Source: Escherichia phage SKA64. From it: a stretch of DNA of 64,000 bases. The DNA is taken from sequence record OM362897.1; one strand, written 5' to 3'. Shown here in pieces: positions 48,046 through 62,287 of the stretch. The position numbers and the translations under genes were made by a program. Numbering within the stretch: position 1 is the stretch's first letter; each line of letters begins with the position of its first letter. Below the pieces are notes generated by a model, which saw only the letters and a program-made list of their open reading frames with translations, was not told the DNA's origin and ran no database searches.

Positions 48046-48432
48046 TTAACCCCATTCATACTGTGCTACCTTTTCTTTTACCCAATCTACACGATCTTTA
48101 TCATAATGTTGAGTGCCAAGGAAAAGACCATTGTGGAAACTTTCCTCACCGAAAGGATAAATTAGATCTAAACCATCTTCTTCAAACAACATTTTTAATC
48201 TGTTTGATGTAGATTTCTTAGTTTCTGAATTGTAGTTTGTGGTTATAAGCCAATCTTCCAAACAACGACACAAGCCTTGACGAGAATCCCAAGGAAAAAC
48301 ACAATCTCCGACAGGAGCTTGTTCCGCCCATTTCAACCAACCTTTAAAAAAGTTATACAATATGTAGTCTTCAGTGTAATACATTAGCGCCTCCTTTACA
48401 TATACAATAACACCCCGCAGAACGGGGTGCAA
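48046..48432 (-). CDS. hypothetical protein, paralog family A member
   Basis: Shares W...GLC-x-CL...YPF...R-x-x-WV pattern with five other ORFs in the block. Confidence 0.4.
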   Translation of the reverse strand: MHPVLRGVIVYVKEALMYYTEDYILYNFFKGWLKWAEQAPVGDCVFPWDSRQGLCRCLEDWLITTNYNSETKKSTSNRLKMLFEEDGLDLIYPFGEESFHNGLFLGTQHYDKDRVDWVKEKVAQYEWG

Positions 48433-49323: not shown

Positions 49324-49722
49324 TTATTCTGCCTCATCATAGAAGAAATCCAACTCTTGTTCCAGTTGTTTAACTCGATCCTTAACCCACTGTACACGTT
49401 TTTCATTAAACATGCAACGTTTTTCCTTACACTCTTGCTCAAAAGATTTTGCTGTGTTAAATGGGAAAGTTGTATCTAAGCCAGCGTTTTCAAAACTGGC
49501 TAATTGCATACCATAAACAGAATATGCTAAAGAATGCTCGGCCCGAAATTCATCACTTATATACATACGTAGACCTCGGCATAAGCCAACATCAGCGTAA
49601 CCACTTTCTCTTGGAAAGAGACGGAGGTGTTCTAACCAATTATTATAGAAATCTAAAAGAATCCTCTTACACTTCAAATCGATTGTCATAAAAAGTTTCT
49701 CCTTCATCGAACAAGTTGGCAA
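49324..49722 (-). CDS. hypothetical protein, paralog family A member
   Basis: FYNNWL...GLCRGL...AGLD..FPFN...RVQWVKDRV. Confidence 0.4.
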   Translation of the reverse strand: MPTCSMKEKLFMTIDLKCKRILLDFYNNWLEHLRLFPRESGYADVGLCRGLRMYISDEFRAEHSLAYSVYGMQLASFENAGLDTTFPFNTAKSFEQECKEKRCMFNEKRVQWVKDRVKQLEQELDFFYDEAE

Positions 49723-51696: not shown

Positions 51697-52251
51697 TTAG
51701 TTCCAACTAATAATGATGTGTTTGATAATCCCAAAAACACTGTGCTCTGCGGTTGCCAATGTTACATCCAAACCTTTTGCACGTAGCATTGTAGCTACAA
51801 CATTTGCCCCTCTTTTCTGCTCACTTATCTGTTCATAAGAAGAAGGGTTATTGCACAAACCAAAACTGGAAGGTTCAAAGTATTTTTCAAACTTCCCTTG
51901 TTCCGCACAATCTTCAATCTCTAATAGAACGGCGTCTACCATTTCAGTAAAATGGGAATTTGCTTGCAGTGCTTTATTACGCAGTTTATCACGTAAACTT
52001 CCCGTAGATTCTTCCTGCTCTTCTGTCTGTCCATCTTCACAGAAAGGATGAAGTTCAGCCCAGTCCCAAGCATCTCCTTCTAAAGCAAATGGAGTGTTGT
52101 AATTGAAGAAAGTGCAGCGCGGATATTCCCCGTTGAAAGAATCTTTCAGCAGAATATATTTCTTACCGTTTGCATGGAAGAGTTCTCCTTTGATAACCTT
52201 ACCTACAAGGATATCACTGTTAGTGGAACGGGTGCAAATAAATTTTTTCAT
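51697..52251 (-). CDS. hypothetical protein
   Basis: 184-aa ORF. Confidence 0.35.
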   Translation of the reverse strand: MKKFICTRSTNSDILVGKVIKGELFHANGKKYILLKDSFNGEYPRCTFFNYNTPFALEGDAWDWAELHPFCEDGQTEEQEESTGSLRDKLRNKALQANSHFTEMVDAVLLEIEDCAEQGKFEKYFEPSSFGLCNNPSSYEQISEQKRGANVVATMLRAKGLDVTLATAEHSVFGIIKHIIISWN

Positions 52252-52758: not shown

Positions 52759-53085
52759 TTATTCATCCTCCTCTGCAATACGATCTCTTACCCAATTAAT
52801 CCTGTCCACGTTCAGGTGACATACCTCTGCATCTGATTCTAAGACATATGCATCGTAGTTCTCATTGAAAGGGAGTGCTTGACTCAACCCTTTATAGTGG
52901 AACTGCGCGTGCATTTCATCTGATAAGGTCGTTATAATGGGGTTGTAATTGCCTCTGTGCACATAGTCGAATAAGTTGGCACACAAACCGCAATCCCGCC
53001 GAAAAGGTTTACCATCAGGAGCACCAACATCAATCCATGCTAGATAAATTTTATAAAACTCTATCAACCTTGCGCTTGTTTTCAT
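52759..53085 (-). CDS. hypothetical protein, paralog family A member
   Basis: FYKIYLAW...CGLCANL...KGLSQALPFN...RINWVRDRI. Confidence 0.4.
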   Translation of the reverse strand: MKTSARLIEFYKIYLAWIDVGAPDGKPFRRDCGLCANLFDYVHRGNYNPIITTLSDEMHAQFHYKGLSQALPFNENYDAYVLESDAEVCHLNVDRINWVRDRIAEEDE

Positions 53086-54670: not shown

Positions 54671-55069
54671 TTATCGTTGCGTACAATCAGCTTCTAGAGT
54701 AAGAACATTCGTTATTGTTTTATCATTTTTTAGAAATGCAAACCAAGCTAAAGTGTCTCGATACTCTGTGCGCATCATCACAACTTCAGTAGTGCCAATA
54801 AACTGTTGTGAACCGTACATAGCACTACCATCTTTACTTTTTTCTCCTGTGTGTTGCAGAATGCCACTCATCAAAGCACCACCTGAATTTTTAAGGATAA
54901 AGGAGTTATCTTTATTAATGACAACAGAAGCCATTTTCTTAGGACCAGAAATAACTTCACCTTTCAGATTTTTAACAACCACATCTGACACACACTCATA
55001 AACTTGAGACGCATTTGCTGTTCCAAGTGATGCAATGAGTAACAATAAACCTACGATGATCTTTTTCAT
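54671..55069 (-). CDS. hypothetical secreted protein with signal peptide
   Basis: MKKIIVGLLLLIASLGTANAS N-terminus. Confidence 0.4.
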   Translation of the reverse strand: MKKIIVGLLLLIASLGTANASQVYECVSDVVVKNLKGEVISGPKKMASVVINKDNSFILKNSGGALMSGILQHTGEKSKDGSAMYGSQQFIGTTEVVMMRTEYRDTLAWFAFLKNDKTITNVLTLEADCTQR

Positions 55070-55373
55070 ATAAACTCTCCTCTTTATTTACCCGACGCGC
55101 CCCTGTTGGGCGGAAAGGGTTGTACGCAAAATTTTTAGCTCCAATCGTCGGGTGTCCCGACTCCTTACGCTTTTAATGTTTTAACAGAATGACAAGCTTT
55201 GCAAACCATAACCGGAACAAGTTCGTCTCCACTATCCGCATAAATCACTGTTTTCTTCATTCTGCCACCACATGAACAATACTCTGTATGATCCACTGGA
55301 ATATTAAATATTCCGTAATCACTTTCATACTGTTTCTTACATATGGACACTGCTTTTGTAAAACAAGACATAC

Positions 55374-55595
55374 CTACTCCGAAAGAACATTCACTTCATC
55401 AGAGAAAAATACGTAATCACAACCTTCCCAAACATCTTCTTCAAACCACTCCCATCCCTCAACTTTGGACATTTCTTCTATCGTAACAAAGAATGTTGTC
55501 ATGTCATCGCTAACAAGATGTGCTTCAACAACAAAAGGAATCTGAACATTCTCAAAACCAACATAACCCAATACATCACAAACTCTAATTTTCAT
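55374..55595 (-). CDS. hypothetical protein, paralog family B member
   Basis: MKIRV...EGWEWFEEDVWEGCDYVFF, paralogous to 58970-59200. Confidence 0.35.
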   Translation of the reverse strand: MKIRVCDVLGYVGFENVQIPFVVEAHLVSDDMTTFFVTIEEMSKVEGWEWFEEDVWEGCDYVFFSDEVNVLSE

Positions 55596-55990
55596 ATTAT
55601 GCTCCTTTGTAGATTATGTTGGTGCGTTCACACTCTGCTACCAGCAAGCGATTAGCAATGTTATCCATAGGAACATTAATCTCTACACTCCAGGCATTGA
55701 TACACACTTCTTCAATCTTTGCTCCCAACATTTGTGCGATCAGGGCAACAGCCCCAGCATATTCAAGTTTAATCTCAATTACCATTTTGCACCTCAAGGT
55801 TATTTATCTTGCTTGTATCTTACAAGGCGATCACACTCTAGGTCAAGAAATTTCTCCGCATTTCGTTCATGTTTGAGCACAATACATTGTTCTTTCCAGT
55901 CTGTAGCTCTTTGCTGCGCTGCTCCTGGGTCAAAATCCCAAAGCCATGCCGCGAAAAGAACAACCATAACAATCACTAAGAAACTAAACA

Positions 55991-56305
55991 CTATTGGCAT
56001 TGCACATCCTCCTGTGTAGCATGGTCTTTTACCCATTTTATACGGGCAGCATTCAAATGCAATAGCCCGTTTCTTTGTGCAAAATCATATTTAAACCAGT
56101 CTCCGTCATCAAACGGGTATTCTTCAGACAATCCTGCCTCACGGAATTGCATTTGCATTTCATAATTTAGATCATCATAACCTCCAGTCCAAAGGTAGAG
56201 GCAACTACATAATCCTTTATCATGCCAGAAAGGATTATTATCTGGAGCACCAGCTAACAGCCAGTTATGATATGCTTGATAAAATTCTTTAAGTTCTTCT
56301 GACAT
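55991..56305 (-). CDS. hypothetical protein, paralog family A member
   Basis: FYQAYHNWL...KGLCSCL...AGLSEEYPFD...RIKWVKDH. Confidence 0.4.
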   Translation of the reverse strand: MSEELKEFYQAYHNWLLAGAPDNNPFWHDKGLCSCLYLWTGGYDDLNYEMQMQFREAGLSEEYPFDDGDWFKYDFAQRNGLLHLNAARIKWVKDHATQEDVQCQ

Positions 56306-57357
56306 TTAACCTCCTGTGTACAGGGTTGAAAGATACACAGCAAAAGCATTCTCGGCTGTTTTCACCTCCTCTTCAAGATCTTCACGCTCTGCTGGCGTTA
56401 ATGCATTCCGCACAGCAGCGTCTGCTTCTCGGATTTTTCTTACTAAACGTGAAACATCTTTCAATTGTTGAAAAGTAGCCATAATCTTTCTCCTGTTTTA
56501 GTGAGTATCACGCCATTCGGCAATCTCTTCGGCTAAACGATCACAAGAATCGAAAGCCACTTTACCTTTAGTCTGATTTTCATATCGCACTTCCTTCAAT
56601 GCGAGTAATGCATTCACCAGATTATCAACACCTTGATCATCCAGTGCGATAACATCGAAGTTAAACCCTGTGTCAGTTGGGACTTTACGTTTTATGGTGT
56701 AATAGTCCCCTTCATGACGTTCAACATACACGTATGGGTAACTGCTGTTCGGATCATGTTTTACGCGAATAGATGTTTTCATGTTTTGTTCTCCTCTTTA
56801 GTCAAACCAGTTGTATTCAGAAGGGTAACGAGCGTAGTTTGGCTTATACCCCAACCTTTTCATCTTAACAGACATACGAGTGAAGCCAAAGGTTGTTTTG
56901 CCCTTAGACATAAACTTCTTCCCGCTCTTCATTGGCTTCTTAGGGTTTTTGATCGTCTGGTGTAACGCTCGCGCAAGCCACAAAGTGTATGCGCTCGGCA
57001 CTTGATTAACTTTCATCTTGTTACCTTTCATCATTTCACCTCGGACCAATCAATAGTGATCCACTCGTATGCCCCGTTCAGATCCATTTCTTTATAAACA
57101 ATAAGCCCACGCTCACGAAGAATTGCTACTGCTTCATCCATCCACTTCACCTGATTGTAGATCTGCTCTGGGTGGGTGGGAGAATTATTCAGACCAAAAT
57201 CAGATGGCGTGAAATTTCTTGAAGAGTTTCCCGCTCGTGCTTCAGCAAAACATGTCTCGATCACTTCTTCAACAGGGAAGTTGAAGGAAGCTTCTTTTGC
57301 AATACGGCGTAACTGTTCGGTCAGATTCATCTTATTCTCCTTTCGTTGTGCGAAACA

Positions 57358-57861
57358 TTATAACAGATCTAATGCTTTCAACTCTTCTTTCAATGATTCA
57401 GGCAGGTCACATTCAATGTCAATCAGAGATAACAAGTGACCAACAATGCCTTCCAGATGTTGATACTCACTATAACTTATAAATTCAGAATTGTAAACAG
57501 AAACATCCTTAGTTTCTTTCACAACTTCCCCCGCAGACACGCACATAAAAAAGTTACGCTCTCCGCGAGCTAACAATATCTCCCAACTCCTGAACGGATA
57601 CTGTCCAGCTTCAATAATATCCCCGCTGTCCAATAAAGTCAATGAGCAAACAGACCCTGATTCACTAACATCCTCGACGCGGAAACAAGACCCTTCAATC
57701 AAAGCTGCCATTTTGAAATTTTCATCAGAGATCATAGAGAAAGCTTCACAGGCAGCTTTACTTTTGAAACAATAAACAGCATTAACTTTAAACATAACAT
57801 TCCCCTTTTTAAACAAAAGATACGCCGATGGTAGCAACAACCAAACGTTTATAAACTTCAA
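57358..57861 (-). CDS. hypothetical protein
   Basis: 167-aa ORF. Confidence 0.35.
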   Translation of the reverse strand: MKFINVWLLLPSAYLLFKKGNVMFKVNAVYCFKSKAACEAFSMISDENFKMAALIEGSCFRVEDVSESGSVCSLTLLDSGDIIEAGQYPFRSWEILLARGERNFFMCVSAGEVVKETKDVSVYNSEFISYSEYQHLEGIVGHLLSLIDIECDLPESLKEELKALDLL

Positions 57862-58267
57862 CCTCTTCTGTAGGATTAGACATTTTATGCTCTGCTGCCT
57901 CTTTCAAAGCTTCTTCATAACTTTCAAATCCAGAAATACAGGTGTCATCAGTCATTACAACATACCACTCTTCTTTTGTTGTATCAACAGGTTCTTCTTG
58001 TGGTTTTCCACGACCACCACGAACACCACCGTCAACAAAATAATCTATATGAGCAGAATTGATTATGTAACGATCCCCATCACCAGCAGTGATAATACCG
58101 TCTCTCATACCTATTACAACCATTGACAAGATATTACCATTTGCATCAGTGCTCAACACCTCGAAAAAATTCTCTCCAATGATAGCAGCAATACTGTTAT
58201 CAAAGGTAGAATATAATCGCATATAATCCTCATCCTGGAAACGGTAGACATGACCTTCTTTAAACAT
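57809..58267 (-). CDS. hypothetical protein
   Basis: 152-aa ORF. Confidence 0.35.
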   Translation of the reverse strand: MFKEGHVYRFQDEDYMRLYSTFDNSIAAIIGENFFEVLSTDANGNILSMVVIGMRDGIITAGDGDRYIINSAHIDYFVDGGVRGGRGKPQEEPVDTTKEEWYVVMTDDTCISGFESYEEALKEAAEHKMSNPTEEVEVYKRLVVATIGVSFV

Positions 58268-58721
58268 TGTTCTCTCCTCCTAACTCATCATACCATTTCA
58301 AAGCGTCTTTTGGAAGCATACCAAAATCTTCTTTTAGTTCTTTTTCAATCTCTTCTTGCATTTCCATCAGCGTTTTCAGTTGACGGACTTTTTTGTGCAT
58401 AGCCACATTCCTTTCATTAAGGTTTGTCACTACATTATTTGCACGACTCGGTGGAAATGACAAAGGTTTCACGGGAAGATAATCTTCGATATTATCTAGT
58501 GCGTTACGAAAATTATGATCCAAGAAACGCACATCTACACGATTGTAATCGGCAGCTACAACAGTGAACACTTTAAACGGCACATTGGATAAAGTATGTT
58601 GCACATAGACAGTACCCATATTGCCTTCAATTTTACTATTAACTTCCAGCAAACCTGTATGAGCACTAACATAATCGTGAACACATTGCACATAAGCTGC
58701 CAGTATAGTGAATTGTCTCAT
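58260..58721 (-). CDS. hypothetical protein
   Basis: 153-aa ORF. Confidence 0.35.
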   Translation of the reverse strand: MRQFTILAAYVQCVHDYVSAHTGLLEVNSKIEGNMGTVYVQHTLSNVPFKVFTVVAADYNRVDVRFLDHNFRNALDNIEDYLPVKPLSFPPSRANNVVTNLNERNVAMHKKVRQLKTLMEMQEEIEKELKEDFGMLPKDALKWYDELGGENNV

Positions 58722-58969
58722 TTTCTACCTCCCCATAATGCTAACATTTTATTGAAAATGGAAACGCGTCGTGCGCGAGATGCCATATCATAATTCATTC
58801 TTTCCGTCCCTGCAAGAAATTGATCTACTGTAATCAACGCTTTTGTCTTCTCTTTCAGAGTTTGCATATTCATCCATTCACATTCAGAGTACCAATTATC
58901 GAAATACAAACTATCAAGAAGATCCATTGCTGCTTCGTTCTGCTGTGGTGTGATCATTGCACACTACCT

Positions 58970-59200
58970 TTAATAGACAATGTTATATTCGTGAGGAAAG
59001 AAAACATAATCTTCCCCTTCTCGTGCATCTATCTCGTCCCAAAACCATTCCTGCACTTCCATCATCTTCGAGAATCGCACATGAGCAAGCCCACTGTATT
59101 CCACCGTAGCTTCCAGCACAAGTGGAAATTTTGCATGTGCCAATCCTTTATAACCACCATCATTCTCAATACGAATTTTCATGCGTTTCATATTATGCAT
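58970..59200 (-). CDS. hypothetical protein, paralog family B member
   Basis: MKIRI...VQEWFWDEIDAREGEDYVFF, paralogous to 55374-55595. Confidence 0.35.
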   Translation of the reverse strand: MHNMKRMKIRIENDGGYKGLAHAKFPLVLEATVEYSGLAHVRFSKMMEVQEWFWDEIDAREGEDYVFFPHEYNIVY

Positions 59201-59461
59201 CCTTCAAACCCTTAATAAAGTAACGACCAACCGGATTCCCTCGGAAGTATTCGTTAATGAAATCGATAACACACGTTTCACTGCCTGTCACAACGGACGG
59301 TGCGAAGTTTCGGAACTGCACGAGTACACGACTTGCGTTAGCAAGGGTGTGCACACGATCAGTGTTAGCTAAATACAAGGATACAGTTTTCATATTTGAC
59401 ATTTCAATCTCCTCATTGGCTATCTGTTATGCGCGGTATGCAAACCACTATACAGACATTT

Positions 59462-59830
59462 TTATTCAATGCAAGCATTATTTGCATCTTCAATTCTGTC
59501 TTTCACCCATTGAAGACGTAACGTGTTGGTATGACACGCCAAGTTTATACACTCTGAAAGGTAATCCATGCAATCTGCATTGAACGGAAGATTGTAGTCC
59601 AGCCCTGCACATGTAAATTGTTTCCTCATTTCATATTTCAAGCGGTCCAACAAACTATCCCGCCATCTTCTATCTTCTTCTCTAGTTGTCTCACCAACAA
59701 AATCATTTACATAATCTACCAGACAACCACATAAGCCACTCGTTGTGCGATTCATTGCAGGATAGTTGGCAATCCATGCTTTATAGAAGCGAAGCAATGT
59801 TGCACTGCTCAACGGAATACTATTTGTCAT
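59462..59830 (-). CDS. hypothetical protein, paralog family A member
   Basis: FYKAWIANY...SGLCGCL...AGLDYNLPFN...RLQWVKDRI. Confidence 0.4.
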   Translation of the reverse strand: MTNSIPLSSATLLRFYKAWIANYPAMNRTTSGLCGCLVDYVNDFVGETTREEDRRWRDSLLDRLKYEMRKQFTCAGLDYNLPFNADCMDYLSECINLACHTNTLRLQWVKDRIEDANNACIE

Positions 59831-60164
59831 TTTTCTCTCCTTCGTAATCTTGAATTCTATCTAGCACCCATTGTATACGATGTTTGTTTTTATGGCAAAT
59901 ATGTTTTTTATGTTCGAAGGTGTATTCTTCATAACCACCTTCATTAAACGGGAAATTGTAATCCAATCCTGCACCAATAAACTGTGATTTCATCTCCTGT
60001 TGTAGACGAGGTAACAGTTCATCAGGATATGTTCCCTCTACATACTTAATCAAACATATACACAAGCCACTCGTTGTGTGACCTTCTACCTCACCAGCAA
60101 GCCAAGCTTTGTAAAACTTCATTAGACGTAAACTACTCAACGGAACATTTTTACTCTCTTGCAT
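59820..60164 (-). CDS. hypothetical protein, paralog family A member
   Basis: FYKAWLAGE...SGLCICL...AGLDYNFPFN...RIQWVLDRI. Tandem with 59462-59830. Confidence 0.4.
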   Translation of the reverse strand: MQESKNVPLSSLRLMKFYKAWLAGEVEGHTTSGLCICLIKYVEGTYPDELLPRLQQEMKSQFIGAGLDYNFPFNEGGYEEYTFEHKKHICHKNKHRIQWVLDRIQDYEGEKNDK

Positions 60165-61727
60165 GATAATCTCCTCTCATCGTTAGCCATCTTTCATGGC
60201 AATCATCAATCACCAACATCATACGATCAATCTTAGGGAATTACAATCGAATTATCATAGGGGATTCCTATCAATTATCCCATATATACCGATTATTTTT
60301 GACACCCCACTCTTGTATAAAAAGTAACCCAAAATATCTACGGGGAGAGATTATTTCGGGACACCCTGTTTCATGGCAATCATGGCAAGAATATCTAATA
60401 GAATCAATATCATATGGCAAAAATCATGGCGCATACGTAAGAAGTGCTTAACGCGAATTTTCGGGCCGTCAGGTCCACGCAGCGACAATTCCCAAATATC
60501 ATGAGAATGAGAATAATTATCATTCGTATTCAATGACTTATGCAAGGCTTATGCCAACGTAGCGACAAGGTGGGCCACTTGATTATAAATCACACAAACA
60601 CTTATTTATCAATGGTTTGGCAACCTCATCATATGACGGAACAATGTCAACTGATCCCGCTCATGACAAGCAGACTATTATTTATATGAGAATGATTATT
60701 ATTTAAACGTTTATTAGCATAAAAACTAAAATAAATCAAGAATTTTCTGATTTTATTTACGTTTAAGAGAAGATGCTCAACATATCGCTACGCGATAGTA
60801 TTCGCCCCCGAAAGATTAGCCTTTATTTTCTTGTATGTTTATACGCTATGTGCACACTATGCAACCTGTCGCTATTCGCTCATGTTGCTACGTGCTAATA
60901 CTTCACCGTGCTAATGATCTTTGAGCGATAGCGATTATTTCATCTTGTAATTACCACAATGATTATTGTTATTGCGCTAATGTTATGATCTTGGTAATTA
61001 CATATAATGCTAATAATAAGCCAGCGCAATAAGTGTAAGCGTATTACGCTTGCAATTATTGCAAGCTACGCAGTAACAAGAAATAACCATCACCGATGGT
61101 TATGATTGTTGGGGTGTAGTTGGCTTATTATTAGCTCGCTATGTGTCCGGCATAGCGTGCTAATGATGACTCTGTGAATGATTCGTTTTGTAATGATTTC
61201 ATTTAGTCACTATTATGGCAATAGTTATTATTTTAATGGTTTCGTTTGTTATTGTTCGTTAGTTGGTTGTTTTGTCGTGTTATCGTTATCTTGCTTAGTA
61301 TTCATCATGGTTTGATTGTTTGTTGTTATCAATCATCTTGCTATTATTCCTTTGATTATGATTAGTTTGCTTATTGTTTTATGTTGTTTGTTGGTTAGTT
61401 GTTGCGAACTATTATCAACATTATAGTTATGCACTTATATTGCATAGATAAACATGGATAGATGATAATGGTTATCATTGCACTAGAAAGGAGGTAAAAG
61501 GGTGTTTTTGATGGTTTGTTGTTGGTTGTTGATCGATTTTAACCGCTTTAAATGGCTCTCTAACAGCCTGTTACCCTGGGAGGTATGGTTATTCATTTAA
61601 TGGTTGATTAGCTCGATACCGCGATCTATTCAGTTTTGTTCTGTGTCGGTTTTTCATAGGCGGAATCTATCAACATTATTCAGGCAAAAAGAAAGGGCGC
61701 TTAGTGCGCCCCTTGTTTTGTTGTCAA
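60165..61727. repeat. about 1.5-kb non-coding region with short repeats, palindromes and a GT-skewed tract
   Basis: No ORF of 60 aa or more except one doubtful 64-aa ORF. Repeats TTTCATGGCAATCAT (x2), GTGCTAATGAT (x2), GCGATAG-like motifs; palindromes at 61037-61064; GT-rich 61200-61440. Confidence 0.5.
61693..61714 (-). terminator. hairpin terminator candidate downstream of 61728-62147
   Basis: GGGCGC-TTAGT-GCGCCC flanked by A/T runs. Same sequence recurs at 62260-62276. Confidence 0.45.
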
Positions 61728-62147: not shown

Positions 62148-62257
62148 GATGTTGTCCTTTGTTTCGTTTCGTTGTTTGCTGCCAGTGAGTTAAATATAAT
62201 ATAACGCCGATCCCCTGTCAATAGGGGATAGCGCATTATTTACATTTCTTTACGTTA

Positions 62258-62279
62258 AAGGGCGCTTAGTGCGCCCCTT
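62258..62279 (-). terminator. hairpin terminator candidate downstream of 62288-62655
   Basis: Second copy of GGGCGC-TTAGT-GCGCCC, directly after the gene's stop. Confidence 0.45.
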
Positions 62280-62287
62280 GTATAATC

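Follow-up and report, generated by a model that had tools for sequence, protein, structure and literature searches.

Two diverged members of a small phage protein family in Escherichia phage SKA64 and their probable turnover as single genes

Introduction

Two small genes of Escherichia phage SKA64, here called A and B, resemble each other, and each lies a short way downstream of a member of a second small-gene family, family A. Does this arrangement record the copying of a multi-gene block, or of a single gene? An earlier note on this DNA had taken it for a duplicated cassette. We examined the question in a window of 64,000 nucleotides (sequence record OM362897.1), the whole stretch of DNA analysed here, and in related phages.

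The genome that hosts A and B belongs to Phapecoctavirus, with about 97% nucleotide identity to ECO340P1 and Mt1B1_P17. Both genes sit on the minus strand of this phAPEC8-like E. coli phage, in a block of closely packed small genes, and from its position and strand we infer that the block is the early arm. A sigma-70 promoter scan of 54-64 kb showed no enrichment over shuffles, and tRNA, Rfam, promoter, and terminator scans of the same interval returned nothing particular to the A/B pair.

Results

We confirmed that A and B are homologous genes and corrected the coordinates of one of them. Gene A (55374..55595, minus strand) encodes 73 aa with a pI of 4.05 and a net charge of about -14, and gene B (58970..59191, minus strand) encodes 73 aa with a pI of 5.25 and a net charge of about -4; both open reading frames (ORFs) fall in phrog_15322. 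The ORFs had been described as both reading MKIR and sharing a motif near the C terminus. They are real minus-strand ORFs that carry the cited motifs (A, GWEWFEEDVWEGCDYVFF; B, EWFWDEIDAREGEDYVFF), but the start given for B, at 59200, is probably wrong. Read from 59200, B would have 76 aa and begin MHNMKRMKIRI, with MKIR internal; read from the ATG at 59191, it begins MKRMKIRI. We chose the ATG at 59191 because it is preceded by an AAGGA Shine-Dalgarno sequence at the proper spacing. The phAPEC8_ev052 record has a CDS of equal length, 222 nt, annotated at the position corresponding to B. The true start is thus probably 59191, and 59200 lies 9 nt too far upstream.

The two proteins share 27 of 71 aligned residues (38%; BLASTP, E=2e-14), with a Smith-Waterman score of 116 (z=19.8) that none of 500 shuffles reached, a significant pairwise alignment that bears out the claimed paralogy. 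The phrog_15322 HMM matches A over its full length (residues 1-73 of 73, E=2.5e-44) and B over residues 4-73 (E=7.9e-42), and both proteins also match phrog_13367 weakly. The dN/dS of A against its 74%-identical ortholog in the divergent relative L007 is 0.14, and that of B against L008 is 0.21, showing that each is an intact gene maintained by purifying selection (0.14-0.21). The small size of A and B, and nothing further, would speak for a chance resemblance between short ORFs, or for ORFs that are not genes. That reading, to which we give practically no credence, is refuted by the alignment statistics, the full-length PHROG matches, the dN/dS values, a confident fold prediction, and matches in more than 100 phage genomes, with a CDS at the site in nearly all annotated records among those listed. 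A and B are real, diverged copies within one small (~70-residue), uncharacterised phage protein family.

The pair family, whose members have about 70 aa and occur only in phages, corresponds to phrog_15322 and is linked remotely, by sequence, to phrog_13367 and phrog_20482. It comprises 57 clusters among 1.84 billion representatives, and an IMG/VR scan found a single contig. Its members either stand alone or serve as the N-terminal domain in proteins some 100-250 aa long. The AlphaFold2 model of B (pLDDT 96.8, pTM 0.83) predicts a compact five-strand beta-barrel that weakly resembles SH3. A BFVD search matched uncharacterised phage proteins only, and a PDB sequence-profile search with the family found no match. 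In Klebsiella-phage relatives, the domain is fused to a C-terminal helical tail. Compared with DUF7438 (PF24219), this tail scored 22.2 bits in P0051 and 15.1 bits in P0028, both below the 25-bit gathering threshold; an HMM of the tail did not match the standalone DUF7438 gene in L014, nor did it find a convincing standalone homolog in the 64-kb window, where we used it to test for gene fission. The fused relatives had no Pfam, NCBIfam, or PADLOC hit above threshold.

We then turn to the neighbours. Family A (phrog_2510) has six members in the arm, more than the two or three counted earlier, all on the minus strand. The member upstream of A (55991..56305) has its nearest paralog at 52759..53085. 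The member upstream of B (59462..59830) is the tandem partner, at 45% identity, of the gene at 59820..60164, which is the first of the minus-strand block and was assigned by homology and its PHROG match. Three members found by homology, at 52759..53085, 49324..49722, and 48046..48432, have no pair-family gene close by. The placing of 55991-56305 and 59462-59830 in one family was sound (E=2e-11). A PDB sequence-profile search with family A found no match, and Pfam, NCBIfam, and PADLOC scans returned nothing above threshold.

The members of the pair were said to lie two small genes downstream of family A, which is true of locus A, while locus B has one intervening gene. At locus A these are 55597..55785 (minus strand, 62 aa, phrog_26355) and 55800..56000 (minus strand, 66 aa, phrog_15662), the latter's product carries a hydrophobic segment at its N terminus, and the gene itself overlaps the family A gene 55991 at that gene's end and is missing from the A locus of L007. 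At locus B the intervening gene is 59193..59402 (minus strand, 69 aa, phrog_6496), which is retained in phage anhysbys, where B is missing, and whose position in SF1-1 and ZCKP1 is taken by a second pair-family gene. The intervening genes fall in different PHROGs (26355 and 15662 versus 6496) and show no detectable homology between the loci by Smith-Waterman (z <0.5). Comparison of 55597-55785 with 59193-59402 by hhalign gave 0.05% probability, a weak negative given the shallow profiles (Neff 1.2-2.0). Downstream of A lies 55165..55371 (minus strand, 68 aa, phrog_24734), with paired-cysteine (Zn-ribbon-like) motifs, and downstream of B lies 58718..58957 (minus strand, 79 aa, phrog_23033); these two are unrelated to each other.

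Comparison of the whole segments, 55100-56500 against 58650-60250, by blastn and tblastx recovered nothing beyond the pair genes, the family A genes, and a 19-nt match in the leader. At the protein level, the proposed correspondence therefore extends to the pair and family A genes and leaves out the intervening and downstream genes; at the nucleotide level, similarity is limited to the one 19-nt stretch at the start codons. With these genes unrelated and nucleotide collinearity absent, the idea that a block of several genes was copied and afterwards diverged fails on direct comparison. We also asked, by permutation over 53 genes of which six are family A, how often both pair genes fall no more than three genes downstream of a family A gene; with p=0.085, the linkage is not significant. 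Because there are six family A copies in the arm, the proximity could be due to chance. The evidence points to copying of a single gene over copying of a multi-gene block.

The 19-nt match covers the leader and start codon of each gene: AAAGGAGCATAAT ATG AAA for A (55590..55608, minus strand) and AAGGATGCATAAT ATG AAA for B (59186..59204, minus strand). The leader pattern occurs in the 64 kb solely at these two sites, against 0.11 expected. At locus A, the upstream ORF terminates on a TAA within A's leader. In relatives, the same leader precedes B-type genes whose upstream genes are unrelated. DNA common to both loci consists of the 13-19 nt leader and start codon only. Copying, loss, and movement appear to act on a single gene with its own 13-15 nt leader (GGAnGCATAAn-ATG), not on a multi-gene cassette. 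The common leader could stem from a constraint on translation initiation instead of ancestry.

Gene order in relatives bears on an older version of the cassette, in which family A, a short gene, and a pair gene were duplicated together long ago, and in which the genes in the middle and on the flanks have since been replaced or have become unrecognisable through divergence. The order in question does recur in the divergent relative L007/L008, in which both loci consist of a family A gene, a gene of ~65-70 aa, and a pair gene, and in Klebsiella phage phi1_175008 an A-type gene, a family A gene, and a second pair-family gene are contiguous, with 4-nt overlaps. Divergence is comparable in both families (38% identity for the pair, 30-36% for family A), and the neighbour-joining tree of family A separates 55991/52759 (bootstrap 77) from 59462/59820 (bootstrap 79). 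This two-clade tree, in which deeper nodes are unsupported, is compatible with ancient co-duplication but does not demonstrate it. Against such an event stand the dissimilarity of the middle genes by Smith-Waterman, PHROG assignment, and hhalign, the unrelated downstream genes and lack of nucleotide collinearity, and the non-significant adjacency of pair and family A (p about 0.085). No pair gene lies near 52759, which is the closest paralog of gene 55991. Phage alia keeps the pairing of family A with a small (phrog_15662-type) protein, yet this module stands without a pair gene, and the one B-type gene of alia is preceded by an unrelated gene of 105 aa. Pair-family genes outside the Stephanstirmvirinae (in PhiPLPE, Bragavirus phages, and KP2025) have no family A gene within the 4 kb examined on each side. 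We therefore consider an ancient cassette unlikely; across relatives, the shared order recurs in L007/L008 but single-gene events dominate.

The A-type protein of phi1_175008, which also encodes a second pair-family protein, is 47% identical to A and groups with it at 90% bootstrap; because a Klebsiella phage has an A-type copy, we take the A/B split to be old. Justusliebigvirus phages have a single copy, nearer to B (52%) than to A (37%). Tandem pair-family copies occur in SF1-1, ZCKP1, and T4-like Bragavirus phages, and P0006 and P0007 are chimeras, each with its N-terminal portion from one tandem copy and its C-terminal portion from the other. B is missing from anhysbys, and A is missing from DIJ07P2. 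In anhysbys, the two genes flanking the position of B are 68-74% identical to those of SKA64, amid surroundings of 96-100% identity.

This mosaic region, together with the finding that Justusliebigvirus has only a B-type copy, fits another history, in which A and B are xenologs and one type, probably the A-type, was brought into the Phapecoctavirus lineage from another phage by recombination instead of arising by duplication within the genome. The A-type clade takes in Klebsiella-phage proteins with the C-terminal tail, and in the unrelated phages PhiPLPE and Bragavirus the family is present as a small gene standing on its own. The tandem copies and chimeras, on the other hand, show that duplication within a genome occurs in this family; A and B have a leader sequence in common; and we found no donor lineage outside the Stephanstirmvirinae closer to the A-type than to the B-type. 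We regard a xenologous origin as doubtful.

Discussion

Our preferred reading, which we consider likely, is that A and B represent long-separated A-type and B-type lineages of one family that turn over as single genes. In relatives, this turnover takes the form of tandem duplicates, chimeric genes, the loss of either A or B by itself, and tail fusion. The paralog pair of the earlier note is thus confirmed with corrected coordinates, while "duplicated cassette" exceeds the evidence. The pair shows how small genes turn over in phAPEC8-like phages, as single genes with their own leader, and an uncharacterised family with members in T4-like and other phages now has a confident predicted fold and domain boundaries.

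As to function, the barrel domain may be a module for binding proteins, produced early in infection and directed at host factors, which would serve host takeover or counter-defence. The surfaces of the paralogs appear to have diverged, and because their net charges differ (-14 versus -4), A and B probably differ in targets. Taken by itself, a role as early host-binding modules is tentative and less likely than not. It is conceivable, but quite improbable, that the barrel is a widespread, hitherto undescribed phage module of which two copies work together as a hetero- or homodimer; hints of this are the tandem genes, the fusions with two domains (P0033, P0046, P0050), and the retention of two paralogs. 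In Stephanstirmvirinae it might then join family A as a recurring two-component takeover or counter-defence unit, with A- and B-types for different host variants. The pair family is a reasonable candidate for host-takeover and anti-defence screens.

We found no characterised relative of the pair family in Pfam, NCBIfam, PADLOC, the PDB, or the literature. Pfam, NCBIfam, and PADLOC gave no match for A or B, PADLOC covering defence systems and not anti-defence proteins, and the literature consisted of genome descriptions and host-range papers, none mentioning a gene of the arm.

In the record of Shigella phage SF1-1, the ortholog of A is labelled "ea8.5". Similarity to phage lambda Ea8.5 (PDB 2m7a) was rejected, given an hhalign probability of 0.2% and no PDB match for the family profile; the likeness of lambda Ea8.5 to A comes down to that one record's label and small size. 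Structurally, the nearest known systems are SH3-like barrels (for example, the SH3 domains of p40phox, Hck, and Grb2; PsaE; and the KOW domain of NusG/Spt5), with which ~46-50 residues superpose at 2.4-2.9 A. In deposited annotations, the anhysbys A ortholog and the alia B-type gene are labelled VOG6032 (pVOG). This entry and phrog_15322, phrog_13367, and phrog_20482 are computational clusters tagged "unknown function" and silent on mechanism, and they do not record the two lineages, the tandem copies, the chimeras, or the C-terminal tail fusions.

The comparison class for A and B is the multi-copy small-gene families in early or accessory regions of large lytic phages, family A (phrog_2510) among them. 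Like these families, A and B are small and packed on one strand, variably present, and represented by diverged copies and tandem duplicates, and their history is one of ordinary phage gene-family turnover.

Identification of A and B as paralogous genes

Genes A and B are real paralogs, as the earlier note proposed. Both open reading frames are present on the minus strand, A at 55374-55595 (73 aa), and their products share 27 of 71 residues (38%; BLASTP E=2e-14), with a Smith-Waterman score 19.8 SD above that of shuffled sequences and reached by 0 of 500 shuffles. The motifs cited for the pair are likewise there (GWEWF...WEGCDYVFF and EWFW...REGEDYVFF). Both are genuine genes, based on end-to-end matches to phrog_15322 (A, E=2.5e-44; B, E=7.9e-42) and on dN/dS against diverged orthologs (A versus L007, 0.14; B versus L008, 0.21; both loci from an IMG/VR contig). 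The two are already grouped in this one PHROG. The coordinates of B needed a slight correction. B had been placed at 58970-59200 (minus strand, 76 aa, MHNMKRMKIRI...), but its start is most likely the ATG at 59191 (MKRMKIRI, 73 aa), because its spacing from an AAGGA Shine-Dalgarno sequence is appropriate, whereas the ATG at 59200 abuts that sequence. At the matching place, the phAPEC8_ev052 record has an annotated coding sequence of 222 nt, equal in length to B from 59191.

Domain organization and predicted structure

When 1.84 billion representative proteins were searched exhaustively with a profile, only 57 clusters of the protein family to which A and B belong (the pair family) were recovered. 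Some members stand alone at ~70 aa, and in the others the domain makes up the N terminus of a protein of ~100-250 aa; a few have two domain copies, and most of the longer ones have in common a helical tail ending ...EEKRLLKEIIKMIEEGV. The DUF7438 score of this tail, which Klebsiella phages carry on the pair domain, was below threshold, and no counterpart of the tail was found in the window. In a metagenomic relative, locus L014 has two genes that the window lacks, a DUF7438 gene standing alone (3538-3732, 64 aa) and a 70-aa gene; they lie between homologs of 57031-57330 and 56798-57031.

Conservation, a compact barrel fold, and acidity characterise the products of A and B (net charges of about -14 and about -4, respectively). 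The AlphaFold2 model of B, built on a 31-sequence alignment (pLDDT 96.8, pTM 0.83; five of five models above 94), comprises five strands, a single short helix, and a long loop that is acidic and Trp-rich. In BFVD, Foldseek matched it over its full length (TM 0.7-0.87) to uncharacterised ~70-aa proteins from sources including Merlin, RB49, CS01, and SRT8. Searches of curated families, solved structures, and papers yielded no function for the pair family, and family A (phrog_2510) is equally uncharacterised. Several product names in the arm of the Shigella phage SF1-1 record (L003) look unreliable, among them "head decoration protein," "RNA ligase" (a 132-aa protein with a signal-peptide-like N terminus), and "distal tail protein Dit" (a 48-aa ORF); the only doubtful label that we tested, "protein ea8.5" on the pair-family ortholog, was wrong.

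Genomic setting

Phapecoctavirus comprises phAPEC8-like myoviruses of ~150 kb in the subfamily Stephanstirmvirinae, and many of its genomes, such as ECO340P1 and Mt1B1_P17, match window positions 55000-60200 at 96-98% nucleotide identity. Nearly all genes under this match are annotated as "hypothetical protein." GC skew and an ORF map delimit a minus-strand block of densely packed small genes from ~43 kb to 60.2 kb, with an ORF-poor stretch upstream. This stretch, 60165-61500 (~1.3 kb), is AT-rich, carries short degenerate repeats, lies upstream of the block's first gene, and had no match in tRNA or Rfam searches; alia, SF1-1, ZCKP1, and phi1_175008 have an unannotated gap of 1.5-2 kb at the equivalent position. 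The 25-nt sequence AAAGGGCGCTTAGTGCGCCCCTTGT, which can fold into a hairpin rich in GC, is present as a perfect direct repeat at 61692-61716 and 62257-62281, the former copy being upstream of the presumably early block and flagged as terminator-like on both strands.

An all-against-all search placed six family A genes in the arm (48046, 49324, 52759, 55991, 59462, and 59820). A third paralog pair, on the minus strand, consists of 57031-57330 (99 aa) and 51697-52251 (184 aa), the former matching the C-terminal half of the latter (33% identity, E=3.5e-9); an alia homolog matches both. The products of 57809-58267 and 57358-57795, neighbouring genes on the minus strand, are very acidic (~150 aa each) and appear to be remote paralogs, since one alia protein matches both (E=4e-14 and 2e-7). 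Their homologs are labelled "goF mRNA metabolism modulator" and "RNA metabolism moderator" in one public record, and anhysbys has a further adjacent copy of this type, 26% identical.

Extent of the duplication

The earlier note suggested that A, B, and the neighbouring family A genes (55991-56305 and 59462-59830) form a duplicated multi-gene cassette, each pair gene following its family A gene at a distance of two small genes. These family A genes are indeed homologous. Comparison of 55100-56500 with 58650-60250 (blastn at word size 7, plus tblastx) returned the pair genes, the genes of family A, and a single 19-nt match in the DNA at the two start codons, but nothing else. Two genes intervene at locus A, 55800-56000 (66 aa, hydrophobic N-terminal segment, phrog_15662) and 55597-55785 (62 aa, phrog_26355), but only one at locus B, 59193-59402 (69 aa, phrog_6496). 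Between loci, pairwise scores of intervening genes were at or below the shuffle mean, and profile-profile comparison, with shallow profiles, gave a probability of 0.05%. The genes downstream of A and B are also unrelated (a Zn-ribbon-like protein of 68 aa and a protein of 79 aa). When positions were permuted over the arm's 53 genes, 8.5% of trials placed a family A gene at most three genes upstream of each pair gene; a limit of two genes would not take in both A and B. The pair genes and the multi-copy family A are thus the only features of the window that support a segment duplication.

Could a family A-plus-pair unit have been duplicated as a linked block long ago? Both loci of a divergent relative (the IMG/VR contig with L007 and L008) consist of a family A gene, one gene of ~65-70 aa, and a pair gene. 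The family A tree separates a 55991/52759 clade (bootstrap 77) from a 59462/59820 clade (bootstrap 79), a split expected from a very old duplication of the unit, and the two families show similar levels of divergence. These observations are compatible with ancient linked duplication without demonstrating it, which leaves the cassette claim partly supported, as a possible ancient linkage only. With unrelated intervening and downstream genes, and no other shared DNA than the leader described next, we consider such an origin unlikely.

The sole DNA common to A and B is this leader, AAAGGAGCATAAT-ATG-AAA in A and AAGGATGCATAAT-ATG-AAA in B, whose pattern occurs at no other site in the 64-kb window (chance expectation, 0.11 matches). 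Variants (GGAnGCATAAn and GGAnGCATAGn) precede the ATG of B-type genes in two other genomes, alia, whose upstream gene is an unrelated one, and SF1-1, where the preceding annotated gene stops ~60 nt upstream. Three unrelated upstream ORFs, in the window and alia, enter the leader and stop at its TAA, and their products have Gly-Ala or Asp-Ala as the last residues. This pattern fits movement of a single gene together with its own ribosome-binding leader. Alternatively, strong constraint on the initiation region could account for the likeness; the leader differs at the L007 A gene and the Klebsiella genes and is not retained everywhere.

The pair family in related phages

By tblastn, the pair family was found in 111-121 records of the phage collection. 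Many Phapecoctavirus genomes keep both copies, some lack B (e.g., anhysbys) or A (DIJ07P2), and Justusliebigvirus genomes have a single copy, 52% identical to B versus 37% to A. In anhysbys (L004 6330-6787 versus window 58718-59402), no pair-family gene occupies the B position; the two neighbours of B in the window are present as 68-74% identical alleles within surroundings of 96-100% identity, which looks like mosaic replacement. SF1-1 and ZCKP1 carry a second pair-family gene at the position of the window's phrog_6496 gene, giving two tandem, overlapping copies. In the metagenomic proteins P0006 and P0007, the N-terminal part comes from one tandem copy and the C-terminal part from its partner, with a different junction in each protein, as would be expected of unequal crossing-over. 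Another metagenomic protein, P0019 (141 aa), is an apparent deletion fusion of the ~50 first pair-family residues to a C-terminal segment resembling that of the goF-like proteins (cf. 57809-58267).

In alia, an unrelated 105-aa gene precedes the single B-type gene, and the module of family A gene plus small protein (cf. 55991/55800) is present with no pair gene after it. In this module, conserved between Phapecoctavirus and Justusliebigvirus, a small gene overlaps the 3' end of the family A gene (window 55991-56305 and 55800-56000; alia, L002, 5400-5768 and 5761-5970); the small proteins, with a hydrophobic N-terminal segment, are 40% identical. Klebsiella phage phi1_175008 has three contiguous genes that overlap by 4 nt: one for an A-type protein (122 aa, 47% identical to A), one of family A, and one for a further pair-family protein (152 aa). 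A neighbour-joining tree has an A-type clade (bootstrap 90%), in which window A is joined by its ortholog from IMG/VR and by two long proteins of the Klebsiella type, apart from an E. coli B-type clade (81%), placing the A/B split before the E. coli/Klebsiella separation within Stephanstirmvirinae.

Proposed role and comparison with other phages

A and B lie in a block of small genes whose presence varies. As a tentative reading, their products would be made early in infection and bind host proteins as putative takeover or counter-defence modules, both lineages being kept because A-type and B-type proteins bind different targets. The domain may act in pairs, as hinted by tandem genes and two-domain fusions.

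Outside Stephanstirmvirinae, the family occurs in Iodobacter phage PhiPLPE, where tail genes border the small islet of five genes that contains it, and in T4-like Bragavirus phages, as adjoining 70-aa and 237-aa copies between alc and pseT; no family A gene lies within the 4 kb examined on each side of either. The history of A and B is unremarkable: small accessory genes turning over in a large lytic phage.
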